A stretch of DNA of 25,808 nucleotides from an uncultured Gammaproteobacteria bacterium (GCA_964359615.1 CAYHTX010000001.1:1-25808); one strand, 5' to 3'; positions 2,835-12,917 are shown, numbered from the stretch's first letter. Notes: generated by a model from the sequence alone, not told the origin. A program made the numbers and translations.

Positions 2835-4427
2835 TTATTGTACTTTAAATTCCAACATCATCCCGGCTTCCAGGTGTTCGCTAATATGGCAGTGCGCCAT
2901 CCAGCGGCCGGGATTGGTCATGTCAACCAGAACTTCCACCGTGTCGCCGGTTTGGATAAGGGTGGTATCTTTCCAGACGAGATTGTTATTTGGCACGCCA
3001 TTGGTTGATAGCACTAGGAAACGCTGCCCATGAAAGTGAATTGGGTGTTGCATCGGGTGCAAGGACTTCGGGTCATTAAAAATTTTGATCTTCACTTTGT
3101 CGCCAACCGCAAAATTCCAATCAATATCTTCATTGATGTTTCCGGTTTTATTGTCCTTCATTTGCCACACCAGTGTGTCTTTGGTCGAATTGGCGTTCAT
3201 CATGTCCATATCGTCTTCCCATTCGATCTTCTCCACCTCTCCCATGTTCATCATGGTGTCCGACATCGCGCTGCCACCATGCATCATGTGCATGCCGCTA
3301 CCCGCGCCCATCATTTGCTTCATTTGAATGCCAAGCGTAATGCTTTTGTCAGGCGTTTTGACAAAGTATTCCCGGTACGGATCAATGCTTGCAATCGTGT
3401 CTTTGTTTTCCCGGAGCGTCTGAAATGCTTTCACAAAAGAAATTTCTTTTTCTGTGTTCTCGGCGAATATGGAGCCGAGTTCATACGTTTTGTCTGGGGT
3501 TGAATGGATGAGCGTATATTCACCTTTGTCAGAAAAATAGACATCAACTATTGCCCGCTCTGATGGCCCGAGGAGAACCGAATCCACAAATGTCTCACGC
3601 TCGTATTTGCCATTGTCGCCACCGACCAGTTTCATTTGTGCATCCGTAATCCATACGTTGAAGACGCGCGTGTTGGCCGAGTTGGTGAAAACAAAGCGCA
3701 CGACATCGGATTTGTTCACTCGAAGCGTATAATCAGTCTCGCCATTCACAAGCATGACATTCCCAAACCGACCCATAAGGGCGTGCGTCGCGATATCTTT
3801 ATCAAATGGCGTTTGGCCATTTTCGAGATAGAGATCATCGAGAAAGAGGTATTCGGTGCGGTTCACAGGCGAGTAGTAATTCGGATCATCCGGCATAACG
3901 ACATAGTTTCCGTACATGCCCAACTCCTGCGCATAATCTTCGCGAATGTGCGGGTGGTACCAATAAACGCCCTCGTCCGGAAATTTTATTTTGTAGGTAA
4001 ATGATTCTCCCGACTTGATTTCCTTTTGCGTCACATCCGGCACGCCATCAAATTCATTGGCGAGCCGCACGCCGTGCGAGTGAATTGTGGTCGGTACGTC
4101 AATGTTATTCGTAAACTTCAATGTTATCTCTGCCCCCTTTGGCGCGCGGATAAGCGGCCCCGGGATCGAGCCATTGTAGGCGAGCATGCGAATCTCGCGG
4201 TTGCCAATGGTTTTTTTCACGGCCTCGGCCGTCATCTCGTAGGTGTCGCCGTCGTTGAGGTCAACAATCGGCATTGGTTTGGCTTCTGGGAGAGAAGCTG
4301 CGTCGGTTATTGCATTTTGCGTTCGTTTCACGTCCGAAAAGTCGTTTTGAGAGCGCAAGGCAAACAAAACAAGAACAATAATGAGGGCGAGGCAACAGAA
4401 AATTGTATAGAAAATTTTTTTGTTCAT
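2835..4427 (-). CDS. Multicopper oxidase (CueO/laccase-like)
   Basis: All four copper motifs are present: HSHG, WYHPH, HPIHFHG, HCHISEHLEAGMM (type-1 Cys/His/Met). Met-rich insert and N-terminal TM anchor. Confidence 0.95.
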   Translation of the reverse strand: MNKKIFYTIFCCLALIIVLVLFALRSQNDFSDVKRTQNAITDAASLPEAKPMPIVDLNDGDTYEMTAEAVKKTIGNREIRMLAYNGSIPGPLIRAPKGAEITLKFTNNIDVPTTIHSHGVRLANEFDGVPDVTQKEIKSGESFTYKIKFPDEGVYWYHPHIREDYAQELGMYGNYVVMPDDPNYYSPVNRTEYLFLDDLYLENGQTPFDKDIATHALMGRFGNVMLVNGETDYTLRVNKSDVVRFVFTNSANTRVFNVWITDAQMKLVGGDNGKYERETFVDSVLLGPSERAIVDVYFSDKGEYTLIHSTPDKTYELGSIFAENTEKEISFVKAFQTLRENKDTIASIDPYREYFVKTPDKSITLGIQMKQMMGAGSGMHMMHGGSAMSDTMMNMGEVEKIEWEDDMDMMNANSTKDTLVWQMKDNKTGNINEDIDWNFAVGDKVKIKIFNDPKSLHPMQHPIHFHGQRFLVLSTNGVPNNNLVWKDTTLIQTGDTVEVLVDMTNPGRWMAHCHISEHLEAGMMLEFKVQ

Positions 4428-4437
4428 ACCGGAATAA

Positions 4438-4710
4438 TTACCCGTCCTTTTTAGACAATGTATAAACTTTCATGACCTCCTTCACGGCCTTGCCATGCGC
4501 GCCGGATTTCATCTGCTCGACAACATGGGTATTCAGGTGATTTTCAAGCATCGCGTCCTCAAAGCTTGACACGGCTTTCTTGACCGCGCTCGCCTGGGTG
4601 ATGATATCCACGCAGTACTCGCCTTTCTCGACCATGTTCTGCAAGCCTCGAACCTGCCCCTCGATAATTTTGAGGCGCTTCAGGAGTTTTTTTTGCACGT
4701 TTGGTTTCAT
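4438..4710 (-). CDS. csoR: CsoR/RcnR-family metal-sensing transcriptional repressor
   Basis: 'RLKIIEGQVRGLQNMVEKGEYCVDIITQASAV...LENHLNTH'. Start set to ATG 4710 (MKPN) because ATG 4719 abuts the -10 box. Confidence 0.9.
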   Translation of the reverse strand: MKPNVQKKLLKRLKIIEGQVRGLQNMVEKGEYCVDIITQASAVKKAVSSFEDAMLENHLNTHVVEQMKSGAHGKAVKEVMKVYTLSKKDG

Positions 4711-4719
4711 ATATATCAT

Positions 4720-4742
4720 AGTATACCCCCCTAGGGTATACT
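4720..4742. promoter_or_regulatory. CsoR-type operator
   Basis: Palindrome AGTATACCC-CCCTA-GGGTATACT (9-bp arms with a G/C tract). It matches the known ATACC..G-tract..GGTAT form of Firmicutes CsoR operators and covers the promoter spacer and -10. Confidence 0.85.
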
Positions 4743-4794: not shown

Positions 4795-5316
4795 TTACTG
4801 CCCAGGCACATGGTGATCAACGCCGATGTAGGCGTCAATGAATTGTTTGATCACCTCGGCATCAATGGTTTGAAGTTTCAGCATCCGCGTCCAGGCAGTG
4901 AGGATAATGGGGAAGTCCATGCCTGAATATGGTTCCAATATGATGCTTTTTCCTTTGATATAGTATGGATTCACTATTTCTTCCAGTGCTTGAATCGTGC
5001 TCGATGTCACTTGCACCGGATCATAATGGACAATGACTCCGCCGTCTTCCAGATTGTGCACCTGCATTTCGTCGGGTATTTGCGTATCGGTAACGCCCCA
5101 GGACGCTTTCACACCGTGCGGACCGGAGGTCGGCGGTTTGGAGTTGTATAATTCGTGCGAGTCGGTCAGCGACGTCAGGTGACGATTGCCTTGGTTGGCA
5201 ACTGCGTCACCCGGTCGCGGGCGGGTGACAGACCATACGATGGGGCCGACAATGAGCGCCGTGGGTATGATGATGATCAGAAACCCGGTCAATTTTTTGC
5301 TTGAAGGCTGTTTCAT
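4795..5316 (-). CDS. DUF3105 domain membrane-anchored protein
   Basis: N-terminal TM, 'YNSKPPTSGPH', 'VHNLEDGGVIVHY', 'IILTAWTR'. Confidence 0.85.
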   Translation of the reverse strand: MKQPSSKKLTGFLIIIIPTALIVGPIVWSVTRPRPGDAVANQGNRHLTSLTDSHELYNSKPPTSGPHGVKASWGVTDTQIPDEMQVHNLEDGGVIVHYDPVQVTSSTIQALEEIVNPYYIKGKSIILEPYSGMDFPIILTAWTRMLKLQTIDAEVIKQFIDAYIGVDHHVPGQ

Positions 5317-5327
5317 AGAGAAAATCT

Positions 5328-6143
5328 TTAGCGCAGCGCCGCGTCAATCGTGGCCTTGATCTGCGCGTATGGGAGAGCGCCGGAGATAAGCTGCGCATTC
5401 CCGTCTTTGTCAATAAGAAACGACCCGGGCGTGCCATTGACGCCCGCGGCTGCGCCGCCGTTCATGTCAGCGGCAACGCGCGCCGCGTATTTGCCGCTGT
5501 CCAAACAATTTTTGAATTTGCTTTCACTTAGACCAAGTTCTTTGGCGAGTGGCACCAGCGCGTCAAGCGCAAAACCCGTGCCGTTTGCCGCGGTGCGCTC
5601 AAAGATGGCGTCAGTATACTTCCAAAAAGCATCATTGCCGCCGAGTTCAGCCGCGCATTCGGATGCCTCGGCCTCTTTTTGCGCATTGGCATGGAAGGAC
5701 AAGGGGAAATGGCGATACACCCATTTTACCTGTCCTTTATACTCATCCATCATCTGGAGCATGCTTGGGTGGAATCGCTTGCAGAACGGACATTCAAAAT
5801 CCGAGTATTCGATCCAGGTCAGTTCGGCATTTTTATCGCCACGCACATGATCCTCTTTCGTGACTGGCGGCACAGCCCCGGTCGGCGCCTGAGTCGGCGG
5901 AATTTGAGCTGCCGCGAGCGGCCGAGCTCCAGCATTTGCTCCGTCCGAAACGGCTTTGGCCGTGATGCCGCCTTTTAACACGATTGAAAGGAGAACAAAA
6001 AAGCCAATGGTGCAAAGAACAAGCACCGCGCCAATCATACCAAGCCCGAACACCATTTTGGGCGGCAATTGATTGAAAACACTTTTGTTATTGACAACTG
6101 GATCGAAATCAGGGTCATTGAGACGTGTTGTTTGATTGTCCAT
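5328..6143 (-). CDS. DsbA/BdbD-like thiol-disulfide oxidoreductase, membrane anchored
   Basis: 'EYSDFECPFCKRFH', 'YRHFPLSFH', 'GVNGTPGSF' (cis-Pro loop), one TM helix. Confidence 0.9.
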   Translation of the reverse strand: MDNQTTRLNDPDFDPVVNNKSVFNQLPPKMVFGLGMIGAVLVLCTIGFFVLLSIVLKGGITAKAVSDGANAGARPLAAAQIPPTQAPTGAVPPVTKEDHVRGDKNAELTWIEYSDFECPFCKRFHPSMLQMMDEYKGQVKWVYRHFPLSFHANAQKEAEASECAAELGGNDAFWKYTDAIFERTAANGTGFALDALVPLAKELGLSESKFKNCLDSGKYAARVAADMNGGAAAGVNGTPGSFLIDKDGNAQLISGALPYAQIKATIDAALR

Positions 6144-6212: not shown

Positions 6213-8555
6213 TTACAATTCCGCGCTAATGCGCGCGAAGGCGATAAAGAGCAAAGTAAACACGGCAGTCATGATAACTGGCGCGATGTCAGAGAGATAA
6301 TTTCTTTTGTCTGGCCGAAAGCCTTTGAGGAGAAGCGAGTTAGAGACGACCGACACTGAACTAAACGCCATGGCGAGTCCGGCGAGTTCCGGCCGAAGCA
6401 CAATGCCAAGGCCGATCAGCATACGCGCCGCGATCGGGATGCCGACCACGTTGTAGAACAGGGCAAAAAACATGTTCTGTTTTATTTTCCCCATAGTCTC
6501 CCGGCTCAACTGTATGGCGTGGACCACATCGCGGAGGTCATTCTTCACGAGCACAATGTCTCCAGCCTCCATAGCGACATCGGTGCCGCCGCCCATGGCA
6601 ATGCCGACGTCGGCCTGTGCCAGTGCCGGACTGTCGTTGATGCCATCGCCGACCATGGCGACCCGCATCCCCTTTTCCTGCAATTTTTTGACTTCTTTTT
6701 CTTTATCCTGCGGGAGCACATCGGCGAGCACGTTCGTGATGCCAACTTCTTTCGCAATCGCGGCTGCGGTTCGGGCATTGTCGCCGGTGATCATGTAGGT
6801 CGCGATGCCCATCTGTTGGAGCGATTTGACCGCGGCGACGCTAGTATCTTTCAGCGTATCGGCGACTGCGATGATGCCGAGGATATTTTTATCGTCAGAG
6901 AGAATTACGGCTGTTTTTCCGGCGTCCTCCAGTTTCCGCAACTGTTCTTCAACCGGTGTTGTGTCAAATCCTTCGCGCGCCATCAGTTTCCGGTTGCCAA
7001 GCGCATATTTTTGTCCATCAATCATTCCCTCAACTCCATGCCCTGGCACCGCCTGAAATCCAACGACTGGCAGGAGCGTAAGTCCGTCAGTTTTCGCTCG
7101 CTTCACAATCGCCTCGGCCAGCGGATGCTCTGACGTATTTTCAAGCGATGCGGTGATTTGTAAAAAATTCAACTGGTTTCTATTTTCTATCACATCGGTC
7201 ACTTCCGGCTCACCCTTCGTGAGCGTTCCGGTCTTGTCAAAGACGACGGCCTGAATTTTCGCCGTCGCCTCGAGCGGTTCGCCGCCTTTAATCAGTATCC
7301 CGTATTCGGCGCCCTTGCCGGTGCCAACCATGACTGCCGTCGGCGTGCCGAGGCCCAGGGCGCAGGGGCAGGCAATCACAATAACGGAAACAAATGCCAG
7401 AAGCGCAAAGGTCACTGTCTCACCCAAAACAAAGTACCAGATGAGGAAGGTAAGAATGGCAATACCGATGACCGCTGGCACGAACCAGGCCGAGATCCGA
7501 TCCGCGTACGCTTGGATCGGCGCTTTGGAGCCTTGCGCGTCTTCGACGAGACGGATGATTTGCGCGAGCATGGTATCGGCGCCGACCTTGGTCGCCCGGA
7601 ATTCAAAACTACCGTTTTTGTTGATCGTGGCGCCAACCACTGTGTCACCAGTCTTTTTTTCAACCGGAATGCTTTCGCCCGTCACCATTGATTCATCAAC
7701 TGCGGATAAGCCGTCAGTTACTATTCCGTCAACCGGAATTTTTTCACCCGGCCGCACAATCACAACGTCGCCCGCCACGACTTCTTCGACCGGAATATCA
7801 GTTGTGGTATAGCCGCGGCGCACGCGAGCAATTTTTGCCTGGAGTCCCATCAGTTTTCGGATCGCATCACTCGTCTGCCCCTTGGCGCGCGCCTCGAGCC
7901 ACTTGCCCATGAGGACAAAGGTGATAAGAAAGACGCCGATCTCAAAGTAGAGATTCGGAATTTTCTCTCCCATCGGCGCTATGATTGATCCCGTGAACAG
8001 CGCATAACTGATGAATTCATAGAGACTGTAGAAGAAGGCGGTCGAGGTGCCGATCGCGATCAGACTGTCCATGTTGAACGTCTTCATCTTGAGACTCGAC
8101 CACATCCCGCGGTAGAATCCGGCGCCGAGAATGAATTGCACAGGGAGCGCGAAAAGGAGCGACGCAAGTCCCATGCGCGGCATGATGGATTCTCGAAACG
8201 GCAGCACCGTTAAAAAATCCAACAGCATAAAATACACAAGCGGGATGCTAAAGACAACGCCGGCTAAAAATTTATTCCGGTACGCCAAAATTTCGATAGT
8301 CCGGCGTTTGCGTTCTGCTTCACGGTCTTTCTCATCGGCAATTTCCGCTCTGTATCCTGCCGCTTTGACCGCCTCTTTAATTTTTTCTTCATCCGCGAGG
8401 CTCGCATCATACACGACCCGCGCCTTTTCAGCGCTGACATTCACGTTCACTTCTTTGACGCCTGCCACTTTTTTTACTTTGCGCTCGATAAGCGCGGCGC
8501 ATGAGGCGCAGTGCATGCCATAGATGTTAAATTGTGCACGAGTGTCGGCGGTCAT
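6213..8555 (-). CDS. copA: Cu(I)-translocating P1B-1 ATPase
   Basis: N-terminal GMHCASC HMA, TGES, CPC (IACPCAL), [25 protein letters not shown] and MAFSSVSV metal-site motifs. Confidence 0.95.
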
Positions 8556-8761
8556 ACTTTTTGAACGCGATAATTGTCGAGCGCCTGAACTTCTTCAGTG
8601 AATTTGGCAAAATCAAAGGTTTCATCATGTTCGATCACTCCTTCACCAGTCGCCGCATTCACGGTGCATGATGCTACCCCGGGCAATTCACTCGCCACGT
8701 CTTCAATGAGCGTTTTACATGAAGCACAGTGCATGCCGGTGATTTTTATATTCGTTTGCAT
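8552..8761 (-). CDS. copZ: Copper chaperone, single HMA domain
   Basis: 69 aa, GMHCASC motif, 4-nt overlap with the copA start. Confidence 0.85.
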
Positions 8762-8817: not shown

Positions 8818-10449
8818 TTACGCTGATGACAACACGGTGAAACTGCCGCGCACCATGCCCATGGAACAGCTAAACTGCACCTCGCCCGATTTTTGCGGCG
8901 TAAAGGCAATGATATTTTTCCCAGGTTTGAGGAGTTGTTGAATGCCAAGTTCGCGCGAAACCATGACACTGGTACAGCCGGTGGCGTTGTCGCCGTCAAT
9001 TTCCCAGCGCACCGGAACGCCAACTTGAAGCGTAAAATGATTCGGCTCGTAGCCGGCGTAACCAATGCCCATGCTGATCACTTGCGTATTGCCGTCCATG
9101 ATGATTTTTTCGCTTTCAGATCCGCCGGACGCGATCGTCGGCGCAGTACCGAATGACGGAAACGAGACCGGATATCCGGCAATGGCGAGTCCGTTTTGGA
9201 TATTCCAGAGGCCGAGAATAATGACGAGCGCGCCGGAAAATTGCAGAAAAAATGTTCCGGCTTTGCCTTTGAGCGAACTCGACGCCAGTCCGAGCGCGAC
9301 CAGCGCCGGCGCTGTGCCAAGCGCGAATGCGAGCATGGTCATGGCCCCGGTCGTGAAACTCCCGGCCGTAAGAGCATAGAGTTGCAAGGCCTGGGTAAAT
9401 CCGCAGGGCAGGAAAAACGTCGCGGCGCCAAGTCCGAATGACGCGAGCGGATGATCGTGATGCTCGGCATCCATGATGCGGTGGGAGAGCCATTTTGGCA
9501 GGCGCGGGAGGAGTGATTTCATCCAGCCCGGCGCAATTCCCAAAATATCCAACCCCATAATGAGCATAAACACTGCCGCGGCGATGGTGATAAGCGCAGT
9601 CACCAGCGGAGACGGGGTAAGGAGCGCGCCGACCACGCCGAGAAGCCCGCCGAGGATCGTGTACCCGGCCACGCGCCCGGCGATAAAGAGCATGACAGGC
9701 CGGAGTCGCGCTACCCGGCCAGCCGCCGGATACCGCTCATTGAATTTGGCCGCGGCCGAGAGCAGGAGTCCGCCGGTCACCGCAATGCACGAAGAACTGG
9801 CGGCCACGAGTCCGACCAGAAAAACCGCGCCAAAACTGGTGGCGGCGCCCACAGCGAAGCTGGTTTTGAGAAGCCCGAGCGCGGAAAACAATTTTCCGAT
9901 GAGGAGAACCAGCGCGAAGAGGCCGACGAGCCGCCACAGCGACGGCCGGATTGCTCGAGCCATCAGACGTTCCGCTGCCGCACCCTTGTTTGTTTTCTTT
10001 CGAACGCGATACTTGTCATCGCCAAGTGCGGCCTGGAGTTCCGCGAGTGTTGGCACGCTGCCCTCGATCATGAGTTCGGCCGTGCCGGTTCCGGCATTCA
10101 CATTCACTTTTTGAATCCCAGGCAATTTTTTCCATTTTCGCTCAACCGTAATCTCACAGCTCCGGCAGGTCATGCCGTCGATCCCAACGCTCATCGTGGC
10201 GCAGGACGGCGTGGGTGACGCCGGAATCGGCTCGAGATAAAAGCCGTGCCGCTGAAGATCATCGCTTATTTTTTTGAGATCAAGCGGCGTGGCGCTCACG
10301 ATTCGCATGAGCCGCTTGCCGAGATTCACGTCCACCCGCTCGATACCCGGGATTGGCGCGAGGAGTGAACGCAATCGCTGCTCGGCCGCGGCGTCCGTAA
10401 GCGCCGCAACCGAACATTTATAGATGCAAGGTTCAGATGATTGATTCAT
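8818..10449 (-). CDS. HMA + DsbD_2/TauE-SafE-like membrane domain + C-terminal cupredoxin-like fusion protein
   Basis: A degenerate HMA-like domain, then GMTCRSC HMA, then a multi-TM core with 'ASSSCIAVTGG' and 'FLPCGFTQ' cysteines, then C-terminal 'GYEPNHFTLQVGVPVRW...GC...FSCSMGM'. Confidence 0.85.
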   Translation of the reverse strand: MNQSSEPCIYKCSVAALTDAAAEQRLRSLLAPIPGIERVDVNLGKRLMRIVSATPLDLKKISDDLQRHGFYLEPIPASPTPSCATMSVGIDGMTCRSCEITVERKWKKLPGIQKVNVNAGTGTAELMIEGSVPTLAELQAALGDDKYRVRKKTNKGAAAERLMARAIRPSLWRLVGLFALVLLIGKLFSALGLLKTSFAVGAATSFGAVFLVGLVAASSSCIAVTGGLLLSAAAKFNERYPAAGRVARLRPVMLFIAGRVAGYTILGGLLGVVGALLTPSPLVTALITIAAAVFMLIMGLDILGIAPGWMKSLLPRLPKWLSHRIMDAEHHDHPLASFGLGAATFFLPCGFTQALQLYALTAGSFTTGAMTMLAFALGTAPALVALGLASSSLKGKAGTFFLQFSGALVIILGLWNIQNGLAIAGYPVSFPSFGTAPTIASGGSESEKIIMDGNTQVISMGIGYAGYEPNHFTLQVGVPVRWEIDGDNATGCTSVMVSRELGIQQLLKPGKNIIAFTPQKSGEVQFSCSMGMVRGSFTVLSSA

Positions 10450-10473
10450 AATAATTCATTTTCAGTTATTAAC

Positions 10474-10534
10474 AAAAAAGCCTCATACCCACAAACGCTG
10501 CTTCCATCAAAGAGAAAACAGCCGGGTATTAGGC
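10474..10534 (-). terminator. Terminator-like hairpin + U-tract overlapping the stop codon of the upstream ORF (candidate attenuator)
   Basis: Minus strand GCCTAATACCC (10534-10524) pairs with GGGTATGAGGC (10490-10480) at 10/11 positions. Inner stem GCTGTTTTC/GGAAGCAGC (9 bp, 2 G-U) with an 8-nt loop, followed by TTTTTT (10479-10474). Confidence 0.65.
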
Positions 10535-10954
10535 GTACAATTTTGGCTGAAGGATACCGTCTGAAAAAAGCGGTAAAAGATAATTGTAGCGTCTCGCATC
10601 GCGCCAGCCTCTCGCGTAAAACAAAAACCGGCTGACCGCTCGAGGCATCGCAGACAAATGATTGAACACCACAAACACAACAACCGCCGCAAGGATAATC
10701 AAAATCCAGCCGCTGCCATTGACGGCAAGCGTCGCCGCGATCATGCTCTGCCAGACAGCCACGTGCTCACTCAAGTCCATCCCGCAATTCTGCCCCGGAA
10801 TGCAGTCAGGTGTCATGTGGTGCGACCCAGTCATATTCATGCGGCTCTGCATGATCGGGTTGGCGCAGTCGAATATGCCCGCATAGACGAGCGTCGCAAA
10901 TGCGAGGAGCGTTAAAGTGCTGAGGATGAAGGATGAATGTTTTGCCCGATTCAT
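10529..10954 (-). CDS. Hypothetical Cys/His/Met-rich membrane protein heading the copA unit (candidate leader/sensor)
   Basis: 141 aa from ATG 10954: hydrophobic N-terminus, 'DCANPIMQSRMNMTGSHHMTPDCIPGQNCGMDLSEH', a TM helix, and C-terminal 'LFSDGILQPKLYA'. Confidence 0.7.
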   Translation of the reverse strand: MNRAKHSSFILSTLTLLAFATLVYAGIFDCANPIMQSRMNMTGSHHMTPDCIPGQNCGMDLSEHVAVWQSMIAATLAVNGSGWILIILAAVVVFVVFNHLSAMPRAVSRFLFYARGWRDARRYNYLLPLFSDGILQPKLYA

Positions 10955-10982
10955 AAATACGTCCACGCGTATAACATCTCAC

Positions 10983-11010
10983 AGTATAGCGCAGTCCATG
11001 AAAAAGGCAA
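10983..11010 (-). promoter_or_regulatory. Putative sigma70 promoter for the leader/copA unit
   Basis: Minus strand TTGCCT (11010-11005), 16-nt spacer, TATACT (10988-10983), about 30 nt upstream of ATG 10954. Confidence 0.55.
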
Positions 11011-11341
11011 GTACCGGGTATTCCACATAGAGTCATCCTGTCACTTTCATATCGTTGTCATATATATAGTATACGCACACGATGATACGACATCCGCGGA
11101 GGGAAGAGAAAAAAACACGCGCATTATATCAACGACCCGGAAACAAACAGACTGAGGAAGATCCCGGCATCTACTCTCGTCCATTTCATGCTGATGAAAT
11201 AAATTTTTCGCACCGCTTCTCGCGGCAGCACGAAAAGTTATGCACAGCTCGACCCTTGAAAGTATTCCATTTGCAAAAAATATGCTTTATACTATCTTCA
11301 GGGTCGATAGTCCTGACAAAAAAAATATTTTGAAGGACAAA

Positions 11342-11378
11342 AAACTTTTTACACTCATGCTTGTCGTGTAAAAAGTTT
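11342..11378. repeat. Perfect 13-bp inverted repeat with 11-nt spacer
   Basis: AAACTTTTTACAC-TCATGCTTGTC-GTGTAAAAAGTTT. Confidence 0.8.
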
Positions 11379-11461
11379 CTCGCATCATGATCGTGATTGC
11401 GCGGTGCATCCCGCACACGCGCAGACCATTTGGTATACACCATGGTTATATCAAAACACGT

Positions 11462-11484
11462 TCATGATGAATAACTCATCATGA
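11462..11484. promoter_or_regulatory. 9-bp perfect inverted repeat directly upstream of an SD (operator or 5' hairpin)
   Basis: TCATGATGA-ATAAC-TCATCATGA, immediately followed by GAGGAGGTG. Confidence 0.5.
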
Positions 11485-11499
11485 GAGGAGGTGCACAAT

Positions 11500-11601
11500 A
11501 TGCCAAAGAAACGCAAAGCCGCAAAGAAGAAAGGCGGCAAACGGAAAGCCGCCAAGCGCAAAGGCGGAAAGAAGAGAAAAGGTGGTAAGAAGAAAAGATA
11601 A
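11500..11601 (+). CDS. 33-aa Lys/Arg-rich histone-H1/protamine-like microprotein
   Basis: MPKKRKAAKKKGGKRKAAKRKGGKKRKGGKKKR*. Strong SD (AGGAGGTG) upstream and a terminator downstream. Below the ORF-track length cutoff. Confidence 0.8.
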   Translation: MPKKRKAAKKKGGKRKAAKRKGGKKRKGGKKKR

Positions 11602-11609
11602 ATTCTTCG

Positions 11610-11639
11610 AAAATTCCCCGGTGATACCGGGGGATTTTT
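11610..11639. terminator. Bidirectional intrinsic terminator
   Basis: AAAATTCCCCGGT-GAT-ACCGGGGGATTTT(T), between two convergent stops (11601 and 11643). Confidence 0.85.
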
Positions 11640-11642
11640 ATC

Positions 11643-12917
11643 TTATTCTAGCGTTAAACTCGTCTGCCGCGGCTGCCCACGACCCTCCCCCTCGCCAAAC
11701 ACTTTAACGACCCCGAAGACTCCATCATACCCCGGCTCGATGACAATGTTCCCCGCTCGCACCCGTTTTACGGCTTCGGCAATCTGGGGCGATGACGCTC
11801 GCGCAATGGCGGCACAATCCGCATGGAGCAGAATAAAAAATTCATTGCCGACGTTTTTTATGAGCGCGTCATAGGCCTCTTTCACTCGCTTCGACTGAAC
11901 GCCACAGCCCAGTGTATCAGAAAGAATTTCCGGCAGCGGCACAAGGCTTTTGTACGGAATTTTCCTTCCGTGGCGCGCCGCATCGCGTGAGCGATCGGCG
12001 AGGTCGTTCACGCGATGCATGACGCCAACGACAAGCGGCTTCTTACACTTCGGGCACATGCCGCCGCGCCGTTTTGTTTCCTCCGGTTCGCAAAAAAATT
12101 TGCAGAGCCGGTGGCCATCGAGATGATATTTTCCCTCTTCTGGATAAAATTCAATCGTATATAAAAATTTTTCTTTATCTCCTTCGCGCAGAATTCGCAT
12201 GATCTCGTCATAGGTGATGTCGCGTTCGTTCGAAAACTGCATCACATTTGCCTCCATCCCAAGCTTCTGCGGACTATGGGCGTCAGAGTTCGAAATGAGC
12301 GTAATCGTGTCGAGGGCTGACCAGCGCCAGTTCATGAGGGGATCGCTCGAGAGACCGGTTTCGATCGCAAAAATATGCGGCGTTAATTCCTCGAAACACT
12401 CTTCCATGGTGTTATAGCCGCCACGCGAGCCAAAAATGCCGAACCAGGGCGTCCAGGCATGCGCCGGGATCATGACCATGCGCGGGTCAGCCTCGAGCAT
12501 GAGTTCCAAAATCTGCTTTGAGGTGAGGCCGAGAATCGGACGACCGTCAGCTCGGATATTGAAACCCCGATCTTCGAGCTCTTTATTGAACTTCGCTGCA
12601 ACCTCGAGTGTCGGCGCAAAGAGCAAGTGATGCACGCGCCTGGTCGCGGCCCCGTGTTTTTTGATCGAGGCGACTTCAGTGCCAATCATAAATCGCGTCG
12701 GACTCGAGCCGTCTCTGAGTTTGTACATGCCTTCATTCTCTGGAACGAGCCACTCAGTCATATGCTCGAACCACTTGGGATGCGTGAAATCCCCGGTGAC
12801 CGCAATCTGAATCCCGCGAATTTCGCAGGTCTTCGCAATGTTCGGCAGCACGAGATCTTTCGAGCACGCCCGAGAATAGCGCGAGTGGATATGGAGGTCG
12901 AGAATTTGTTCGATCAT
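11643..12917 (-). CDS. Endonuclease Q family protein (PHP domain + Zn finger)
   Basis: Start at ATG 12917 (MIEQILDLHIHSRYSRACSK). Motifs TGDFTHP, IPAHAWTPWF, ETGLSSDP, SNSDAHS, GKYHLDGHRLC...CPKC, PGYDGVFG. Confidence 0.85.
   Translation of the reverse strand: MIEQILDLHIHSRYSRACSKDLVLPNIAKTCEIRGIQIAVTGDFTHPKWFEHMTEWLVPENEGMYKLRDGSSPTRFMIGTEVASIKKHGAATRRVHHLLFAPTLEVAAKFNKELEDRGFNIRADGRPILGLTSKQILELMLEADPRMVMIPAHAWTPWFGIFGSRGGYNTMEECFEELTPHIFAIETGLSSDPLMNWRWSALDTITLISNSDAHSPQKLGMEANVMQFSNERDITYDEIMRILREGDKEKFLYTIEFYPEEGKYHLDGHRLCKFFCEPEETKRRGGMCPKCKKPLVVGVMHRVNDLADRSRDAARHGRKIPYKSLVPLPEILSDTLGCGVQSKRVKEAYDALIKNVGNEFFILLHADCAAIARASSPQIAEAVKRVRAGNIVIEPGYDGVFGVVKVFGEGEGRGQPRQTSLTLE

Follow-up and report, generated by a model that had tools for sequence, protein, structure and literature searches.

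A candidate nascent-chain leader of copper and thiol genes in candidate-phyla bacteria, with a conserved C-terminal peptide and a terminator-like hairpin at its stop codon

The locus

The subject of this report is a small gene, P0001, on the minus strand of a DNA stretch of 25,808 nucleotides (nt) (GCA_964359615.1, CAYHTX010000001.1:1-25808; the whole stretch is referred to as the window, and positions are counted from its first letter). P0001 is an open reading frame (ORF) of 141 amino acids (10529..10954; ATG at 10954, stop codon TAA at 10529-10531), defined by program translation and by its homologues, which ends inside a terminator-like hairpin and precedes a series of copper and thiol genes, for which it may serve as a cis-acting leader. 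Unless noted otherwise, all features of the window described below are on the minus strand.

The first downstream gene encodes a membrane protein of 543 amino acids with an HMA-HMA-DsbD_2-cupredoxin arrangement (8818..10449), followed by a CopZ-like HMA chaperone (8552-8761) and a CopA P-type ATPase (6213-8555), which together span 6213..8761; all three were assigned by Pfam. A DsbA-like thioredoxin (5328-6143) and a DUF3105 protein (4795-5316) occupy 4795..6143 and are the last genes of the putative read-through unit, beyond which the gene for CsoR and then a multicopper oxidase gene lie on the same strand as the ORF. A promoter-like site, TTGCCT-16-TATACT (10983..11010), is located approximately 30 nt upstream of the ORF start and is a consensus match only. 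The stretch of approximately 680 nt upstream of the ORF (10967-11642) has no convincing ORF and no Rfam match, which is long for a genome of 1.1 Mb, and it contains two terminator-like hairpins (11205-11236 on the minus strand and 11609-11639 on the plus strand); an Rfam scan of 10300-11800 gave chance-level matches only.

Anatomy of the encoded protein

Translation of the minus strand gives a product whose C-terminus is FSDGILQPKLYA and which contains C30-x20-C51-x5-C57 and the pair H45-H46. The initial annotation of this DNA had described, at 10529-10954, a protein with these cysteines, an HH pair, a TM helix, a spacer of about 40 residues and a distinctive terminal motif, all of which are confirmed by the translation. 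The first transmembrane (TM) helix, TM1 (approximately residues 9-28; 10871..10930), is signal-anchor-like and ends in a conserved F-G (G26 in 113 of 127 family members). The wider loop, rich in Cys, Met and His, starts at C30 (10865-10867), and its exported conserved motif, C51-x5-C57-x-M59-x4-H64-x3-W68-Q69 (10748..10804), was delimited by column conservation in the 127 members. TM2 (approximately residues 80-97; 10664..10717), recognized by hydrophobicity and by AlphaFold2, is within one long predicted helix (61-122) and leads into a cytoplasmic spacer of basic and aromatic character (residues 98-129; 10568..10663) that is poorly conserved in sequence but fixed in length. The protein ends with the motif F130-S-D-G-I-L-Q-P-K-L-Y-A141 (10532..10567), a predicted coil for which the family consensus is FSxGILxPK[LI][YF](A).

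AlphaFold2, run with the 127-sequence alignment, returned a mean predicted local distance difference test score of 76.7, with helices at 3-31 and 61-122, a poorly ordered loop at 39-60, and coil for the last ten residues. Because the mean net charge across the family is positive at the N-terminus (+1.9), negative in the loop (-2.5) and positive in the tail (+4.5), the predicted topology is N-in, loop outside and C-in, with both ends cytoplasmic. A signal-like N-terminus had been proposed earlier; the segment is a hydrophobic helix with a positive N-terminus that is predicted to export the loop, and it looks more like an uncleaved signal anchor than like a cleaved signal peptide. In this 141-residue protein the basic tail after TM2 comprises 44 residues. 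The distance from the end of TM2 to G133 is 36 residues in the window protein, which equals the family median (interquartile range 34-37), and that from the end of TM2 to the C-terminus has a family median of 45 residues (interquartile range 43-47). The exported C/M/H/W motif is a presumed Cu(I)/thiol-sensing site, its set of Cys, Met, His and Trp residues resembling periplasmic Cu(I) sites of the kind found in CusF.

An unnamed family with a conserved C-terminus

An exhaustive HMMER search of 1.84 billion cluster representatives (E up to 0.001) matched at least 139 of them, nearly all of 75-191 amino acids and matched through the last residue, while a word-indexed search found four relatives. 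The members are hypothetical or unnamed in their source databases, and those with known taxa belong almost exclusively to Patescibacteria lineages; the homologue at locus L019 comes from a Saccharibacteria MAG. P0001 has no Pfam or NCBIfam family (hmmscan against Pfam, E up to 0.1), and when the 127 near-full-length members, on which all conservation counts are based, were compared with Pfam (hmmscan, E up to 1), neither DUF2946 (PF11162) nor any other plausible family was found. The earlier proposal that the protein is unrelated in sequence to DUF2946 is therefore upheld, since none of the 127 members has a Pfam match. The nearest named cluster by protein language-model features is nevertheless DUF2946, with a score of 0.87 that is a weak lead only. 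A literature search with the motif strings found no papers, and when RNA-seq support was looked for, the sequencing runs carrying this sequence were DNA groundwater runs only.

Because homologues at 25-50% identity retain both motifs despite different codon usage, the ORF and its motifs are, on comparative grounds, not products of chance. In the exported motif, C51 is kept in 123 of the 127 members, C57 in 126, M59 in 121, H64 in 124, W68 in 120 and Q69 in 98. The corresponding counts in the tail are 108 for F130, 95 for S131, 127 for G133, 117 for I134, 112 for L135, 109 for P137 and 111 for K138, followed by [LI] and [YF]; G133 is the sole invariant column of the alignment. It had been expected that the C-terminal motif would be the most conserved part of the protein, and it is indeed among the most conserved, with the invariant G133 and with I134, L135, P137 and K138 at approximately 87-92%, but the exported motif is equally conserved. 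The metal motif originally read as C-x20-C-x5-C plus HH holds for C51 and C57, whereas only 40 of 127 members have the first cysteine (C30), and the family does not conserve the HH pair.

The position of the tail motif is as characteristic as its sequence. It always ends 2-7 residues from the stop codon, and in none of the 139 representatives is it internal or joined to another domain; 2-3 residues follow the motif lysine in 101 of 127 members and 6-7 in 21 of 127. The identity of the stop codon varies across the family (TAA, TAG and TGA are all seen), and a minority subgroup ends in SLAI- or ALAAL-like sequences. The window's genome, read in all six frames, has a single GILxPK, in the family protein, and a general sorting or degradation motif shared by several proteins was rejected on this ground. 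A near-identical copy of the window protein, P0005 (77 amino acids, on an ENA contig of a different assembly), is frameshifted in the tail-coding region near the T-run preceding the motif, and its called product lacks the GILQPK tail; both an assembly error and a natural variant are possible.

A sister subfamily was noticed in approximately ten sampled genomes, mostly of Nomurabacteria and Parcubacteria (loci L065-L074, e.g., L067:1996-2400; proteins P0144-P0263), in which the N-terminal part is built alike (TM1 ending in FG, then C...C...H...W and TM2) but the tail is a different, though equally conserved, peptide. Searching with one sister protein gave at least 219 clusters, all unnamed and without a Pfam family, and 119 of the best-scoring 120 sister clusters have the tail KWLSL[FL]ENSP[SA][FL] followed by 2-10 residues. 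The sister genes adjoin CopA, DsbD/redoxin or HlyD-RND genes, sometimes lie behind a CsoR box, and are often followed by one or two terminator-like hairpins, the first of which overlaps the stop codon. As judged from these sequences, a modular exchange of tails on one sensor chassis fits the idea of an arrest peptide, without proving it.

Gene neighborhood and copper regulation

When 401 genomes from across the phylum were searched with a profile, the family and its sister subfamily together were found in approximately 27. Eighteen loci, namely 16 of the GILxPK type (9-kb regions), the window and locus L001, were compared in detail. In all 18, the family gene is directly upstream of, and co-directional with, an array carrying copper or thiol genes, and CopA is within the fetched region in 15. 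The initial annotation had suggested that similar termini recur upstream of metal genes in the Candidate Phyla Radiation, and this is borne out by the sampled loci, where the family gene is just upstream of CopA, HMA-DsbD_2, DsbA-like or DUF411 genes in 18 of 18. The immediate neighbor is an HMA-DsbD_2 gene in seven loci, a DsbA- or thioredoxin-like gene in four, a cupredoxin, CopA or DUF411 gene in one each, and a gene for an unknown membrane protein in four; the gap between the family gene and the next gene, in these loci from different families of the phylum, is typically 55-100 nt. Because the identity of the next gene varies, the arrangement looks like that expected of a regulator and argues against a fixed protein partner. 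Complex prediction for the family protein with the HMA-DsbD_2 protein gave a score of 0.00, which counts neither for nor against an association.

Copper regulation of a familiar kind is also encoded in the window. The CsoR gene (approximately 4438-4710; Pfam Trns_repr_metal, E 8e-27) has a textbook operator upstream, TATACCCTAGGGGGGTATA, at 4722-4740, which conforms to the canonical form ATACCC-n-GGGGTAT, lies between a TTGACT -35 and a TATACT -10 element and overlaps the csoR promoter. Under this operator, csoR and the multicopper oxidase gene (2835-4427) probably form a unit of their own. No canonical CsoR operator was found upstream of the window ORF or of any of the 18 family genes, and the unit headed by the family ORF, including copZ and copA, has no canonical CsoR site. 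The possibility that the family replaces CsoR was rejected, as the window and many of the genomes with the family encode CsoR themselves.

A terminator-like hairpin that contains the stop codon

The end of the ORF forms part of a two-tier hairpin (10480..10534). Its outer stem pairs 10524-10534 with 10480-10490 at 10 of 11 positions, and its inner stem has 8 base pairs (bp). The 5′ arm of the outer stem consists of the last codon GCC, the stop codon TAA and TACCC, and its partner is GGGTATGAGGC (10/11 pairs). Directly after the hairpin comes a U-run, TTTTTTGTT, which begins with T6 (10471..10479), and hairpin and U-run together have the sequence features of an intrinsic-terminator-like element. 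Only 21 nt separate the U-run from the next ATG (10450..10470), with no usable promoter and no Shine-Dalgarno-like sequence; the sole promoter match in the gap, TTGTTA-16-TATTAT, overlaps the ATG and was discarded as unable to serve the downstream gene. Because the gap leaves no usable promoter, the downstream genes would need read-through. The HMA-DsbD_2 gene is without a Shine-Dalgarno-like sequence in all close loci (10450-10470 of the window, L001, L002, L075-L077 and L016), its start lying there within an A/U-rich stretch that ends in AAAATATG or similar.

When seven close loci were aligned over the hairpin, 95.5% of cells were paired and five pairs were changed on both sides, and sliding the partner columns dropped pairing to 27-50%. 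The same arrangement extends to a subgroup of 15 loci whose proteins end in PKL[YF]A-stop and share 28-49% identity. In 12-13 of these 15, the stop codon lies within a stem of 8-13 bp that adjoins a U-run 41-57 nt downstream, and the distance from the U-run to the next ATG is 13-30 nt. The stem opens with the last sense codon, at its first base (mostly position -3, or -6 in L001 via an extra codon). Compensatory pairs across the subgroup include TAATACCC/GGGTATGA, TAATAAC/GTTATTA, TAATAGC/GCTATTA, TAAGA/TCTTA and TAACAC/GCGTTA.

With the same finder, a terminator-like hairpin was found after the family gene in 14 of 18 loci, compared with 18-23% of the genes of this genome (230 of approximately 1006 crude genes have one within 100 nt). 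Among co-directional gene pairs of the genome with gaps of 40-120 nt, 18% have a terminator in the gap and approximately 6% have the stop codon inside the stem. The notion that stop-overlapping terminators are special in themselves was rejected, considering that 22% of the terminator-like hairpins in this genome overlap stop codons. The distinctive features are that terminators are enriched after the family gene and that the register is conserved within the subgroup.

Several loci show other arrangements. In some distant ones (G220 and G223), the end of the ORF pairs instead with the start region of the next gene, which would be a SecM/CutF type of control. In two related genomes (L053 and L055), the HMA-DsbD_2 gene lies beyond widened gaps of 139 and 337 nt that contain, after the first terminator, very long perfect inverted repeats with stems of 15-18 bp, possibly inserted repeat elements. 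The gap of 201 nt before the next gene in L059 (G348) contains an apparent tRNA gene by a by-eye reading, and read-through from the family gene would enter it.

A possible sensor-leader and its alternatives

On the features of the protein and its transcript, we put at about even the chance that the ORF is a cis-acting nascent-chain sensor-leader, CutF-like but unrelated to CutF, whose tail would make the ribosome pause while it covers the 5′ arm of the terminator. What the analysis establishes is the anatomy of the protein, its conservation through the family, its genomic setting, and a hairpin with covariation, whereas we infer that the protein binds metal, that the ribosome pauses and that the pause is linked to termination. 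During translation, TM1 would insert as a signal anchor, the loop with its Cys, Met, His and Trp residues would be exposed outside the cell, and TM2 would follow as a stop-transfer helix. At the end of the ORF, the FSxGILxPK[LI][YF] peptide would be in the exit tunnel, with TM2 just out, approximately 36-45 residues away, and so placed at the tunnel exit or the translocon. Distances of 36-45 residues are in the range where membrane insertion pulls on arrest peptides. The tail peptide would slow elongation or termination, and the held ribosome would cover the final codon and the stop together with the few bases after them, a stretch that forms the 5′ arm of the outer stem; with the stem adjacent to the U-run blocked, RNA polymerase would read into the HMA-DsbD_2, copZ, copA and dsbA-like genes. 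When the stop codon is in the A site, the ribosome shields roughly 10-12 nt past it. A ribosome standing on the stop of P0001 would remove the outer stem and leave the inner stem approximately 16 nt from the U-run. Copper or thiol stress at the exported motif may, after the CutF model, alter the pulling force or the folding on the nascent chain and in this way the length of the pause.

Two properties of the protein support an arrest reading at the level of sequence: the tail is a linear, unstructured peptide that is conserved, close to the stop codon and present once in the window's genome, and the spacer keeps its length despite poor sequence conservation. The varied copper and thiol neighbors, the enrichment of hairpins after the gene, the stop codon held inside the stem in the subgroup, the short gap without room for a promoter and the lack of a canonical CsoR operator in front of the family genes also speak for the sensor-leader. 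Fujiwara et al. (2024, PMC10987492) used four bioinformatic criteria to find arrest peptides that were subsequently proven, and the family shows all four features: the upstream ORF is small and unannotated, a TM segment lies at the N-terminus, the C-terminus is conserved, and the spacer exceeds 30 residues. In addition, the N-in/C-in topology with two TM helices is described in that work for MifM and ApcA, and in one new candidate cluster it is the predicted topology of most members.

A number of observations weigh against the sensor-leader reading. The motif has a single proline and is unlike any proven arrest sequence. Conservation is as strong in the exported motif and the TM helices as in the tail, a pattern also expected of a stable functional membrane protein, and the stop-overlapping hairpins that make up 22% of those in this compact genome reduce the force of the overlap seen here. 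Across the phylum, the start of the hairpin ranges from -12 to +36 relative to the stop codon, and pairing of the stop region with downstream RNA is not enriched compared with 173 control gene pairs (Mann-Whitney p = 0.67). Direct occlusion throughout the phylum is thus unsupported, and because this test was null we claim direct occlusion only for the PKL[YF]A-stop subgroup, where it remains a prediction. Within that same subgroup, the next gene is almost always HMA-DsbD_2(-cupredoxin), so that a role as partner subunit may apply there. A CsoR repressor gene with its operator is present in the same cluster, and a second copper sensor is not strictly required. Finally, the model needs tight coupling of transcription and translation, which is assumed for these bacteria.

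The chief alternative is an ordinary, stable small membrane protein of a copper/thiol stress system, which we consider possible but not probable. Such a protein would bind Cu(I) at its outer face as a sponge, chaperone or transmembrane sensor, its tail would be a short linear motif that binds a partner (the HMA-DsbD_2 protein, CopA or a protease), and the hairpin, as an ordinary or partial terminator, would fix how much small protein is made relative to the downstream products. Most conserved C-terminal motifs are protein-binding motifs. The strong conservation of the sensor motif and of both TM helices, the near-constant HMA-DsbD_2-cupredoxin neighbor in the subgroup, and the availability of CsoR for regulation all agree with a stable protein, as does the confidently predicted long helix 61-122, which would be able to relay a signal across the membrane; hairpins in co-directional gaps (18%) or overlapping stop codons (22% of hairpins) are, moreover, common in the genome. 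However, no partner gene is common to all loci, the immediate neighbor being of at least six types, and the tail motif is unique to one protein in the genome, never more than seven residues from the end and never fused to a domain. It is also difficult to reconcile a stable protein with a register of stop codon and stem that is held by compensatory changes down to approximately 30% protein identity, or with subgroup downstream genes that have no room for a promoter of their own.

Another alternative is a translation-coupled attenuator without programmed arrest, in which the terminator is set by whether the leading ribosome reaches the stop codon, e.g., via the speed of membrane insertion, and the tail acts in the finished protein, the gene then serving as leader and as functional protein at once. 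The stop codon inside the terminator stem in a conserved register, the lack of space for a downstream promoter, and the conservation of the whole protein rather than of the tail alone are all consistent with such a device. Yet it leaves unexplained why no linear stretch is more invariant than the last 12 residues, at a fixed distance from the stop, and outside the subgroup the hairpin is often beyond the reach of a terminating ribosome; we regard it as improbable. Very improbable, in our view, is a C-terminal degradation tag mimicking the transfer-messenger RNA (tmRNA) tag and yielding a short-lived released protein, which would agree with the hydrophobic ends LYA, LFA and IFA, with the SLAI- or ALAAL-like ends of the minority subgroup and with the rapid degradation of CutF after release (PMC9973294), but is unsupported since the tmRNA tags of four family-bearing genomes (AYALA, SVLA, PAIA and TAIA) differ from the family tails there (PKLF, PKTW, PKIS and PKSW) and the invariant part is G-I-L-x-P-K, not the last two residues.

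In its widest form the sensor-leader proposal is more tentative, and we hold it at somewhat short of even confidence: FSxGILxPK[LI][YF] would be a new arrest-peptide class widespread in candidate-phyla bacteria, in which a membrane-inserted chain reads outside copper or thiol status and passes it, via a ribosome at the stop codon, to antitermination before copA and thiol-redox genes, with the KWLSL[FL]ENSP tail of the sister subfamily as a second, independent arrest module.

To our knowledge, the only nascent-chain metal sensors studied are CutF and CruR, both belonging to one Pfam family and to Pseudomonadota. If the sensor-leader reading is true, sensing of an outside signal by a ribosome-bound nascent protein would have evolved more than once, here with a new tail, a TM anchor and a terminator read-out; it would also show how envelope copper/thiol defense may be controlled in very small genomes with few regulators, and would add an arrest sequence for the study of the ribosome exit tunnel. 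Even if the arrest idea fails, there is a large family with no database entry, a tight link to copper and thiol genes and a clear candidate Cu(I) site.

Comparison with known systems

In the transcriptional attenuators of trp and his operons, as proposed here, a translated leader is separated from the structural genes by an intrinsic terminator, whose formation depends on where the ribosome is. They differ in that the leader of the window is a membrane protein of 141 residues rather than a peptide of 14-30, and in that no alternative antiterminator helix was found in minimum-free-energy folds, its place being taken, on the present proposal, by direct occlusion by the ribosome. TnaC and the NSP-stop, NAP-stop and DGMK-stop peptides share with the family a conserved peptide that reaches the stop codon or ends a few residues before it. 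In the TnaC type, a ribosome held at the stop changes the fate of the downstream transcript, TnaC itself blocking Rho (PMC10987492). TnaC, however, has 24 residues and a cytoplasmic ligand, whereas in the family the stop codon varies and lies 2-7 residues after PK; because of these intervening residues, a pause, if any, may occur in elongation.

MifM, ApcA and the uC_KYxIW cluster (PMC10987492) are likewise small upstream ORFs of N-in/C-in or single-TM topology, in which the C-terminal peptide is conserved and the spacer exceeds 30 residues. Arrest in MifM/ApcA-type systems is released by the force of membrane insertion, and their motifs are diverse and mutually unrelated (PMC10987492). They regulate sec or yidC genes via translation initiation, while the present family precedes copper and thiol genes, has, in a small outer loop, a conserved motif of the metal type and is followed by a terminator-like element.

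The closest resemblance is to the DUF2946 proteins CutF of Rhodobacter capsulatus and CruR of Bordetella pertussis, in which metal status at the exported nascent chain is proposed to set the dwell of the ribosome at the end of the ORF (10.1101/2025.02.05.636593; PMC9973294; PMC9426467). For cutF, a copy in trans was found not to restore a deletion, the gene being needed in cis. Common to these and to the family are a small exported protein, an outside Cys/His metal motif, a conserved C-terminal peptide, a position immediately upstream of copper genes and an RNA stem-loop between the two. The differences are equally clear. None of the 127 family members matches PF11162, and the family has a second TM helix that would anchor the chain, unlike a secreted protein with a cleaved signal peptide; GILxPK contains one proline, in contrast to the PPP or RAPP-like repeat of DUF2946. 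The stem-loop of the family is terminator-like and includes the stop codon, while that of cutF-cutO masks the ribosome-binding site and CruR involves Rho-dependent termination. In addition, the family is found in Patescibacteria, and CutF and CruR in Pseudomonadota. The initial annotation had suggested a system analogous to that of the DUF2946 proteins. For a predicted sensor this view has good comparative support, and the family is best placed, as a candidate, with the CutF/CruR kind of system, outside DUF2946 itself.

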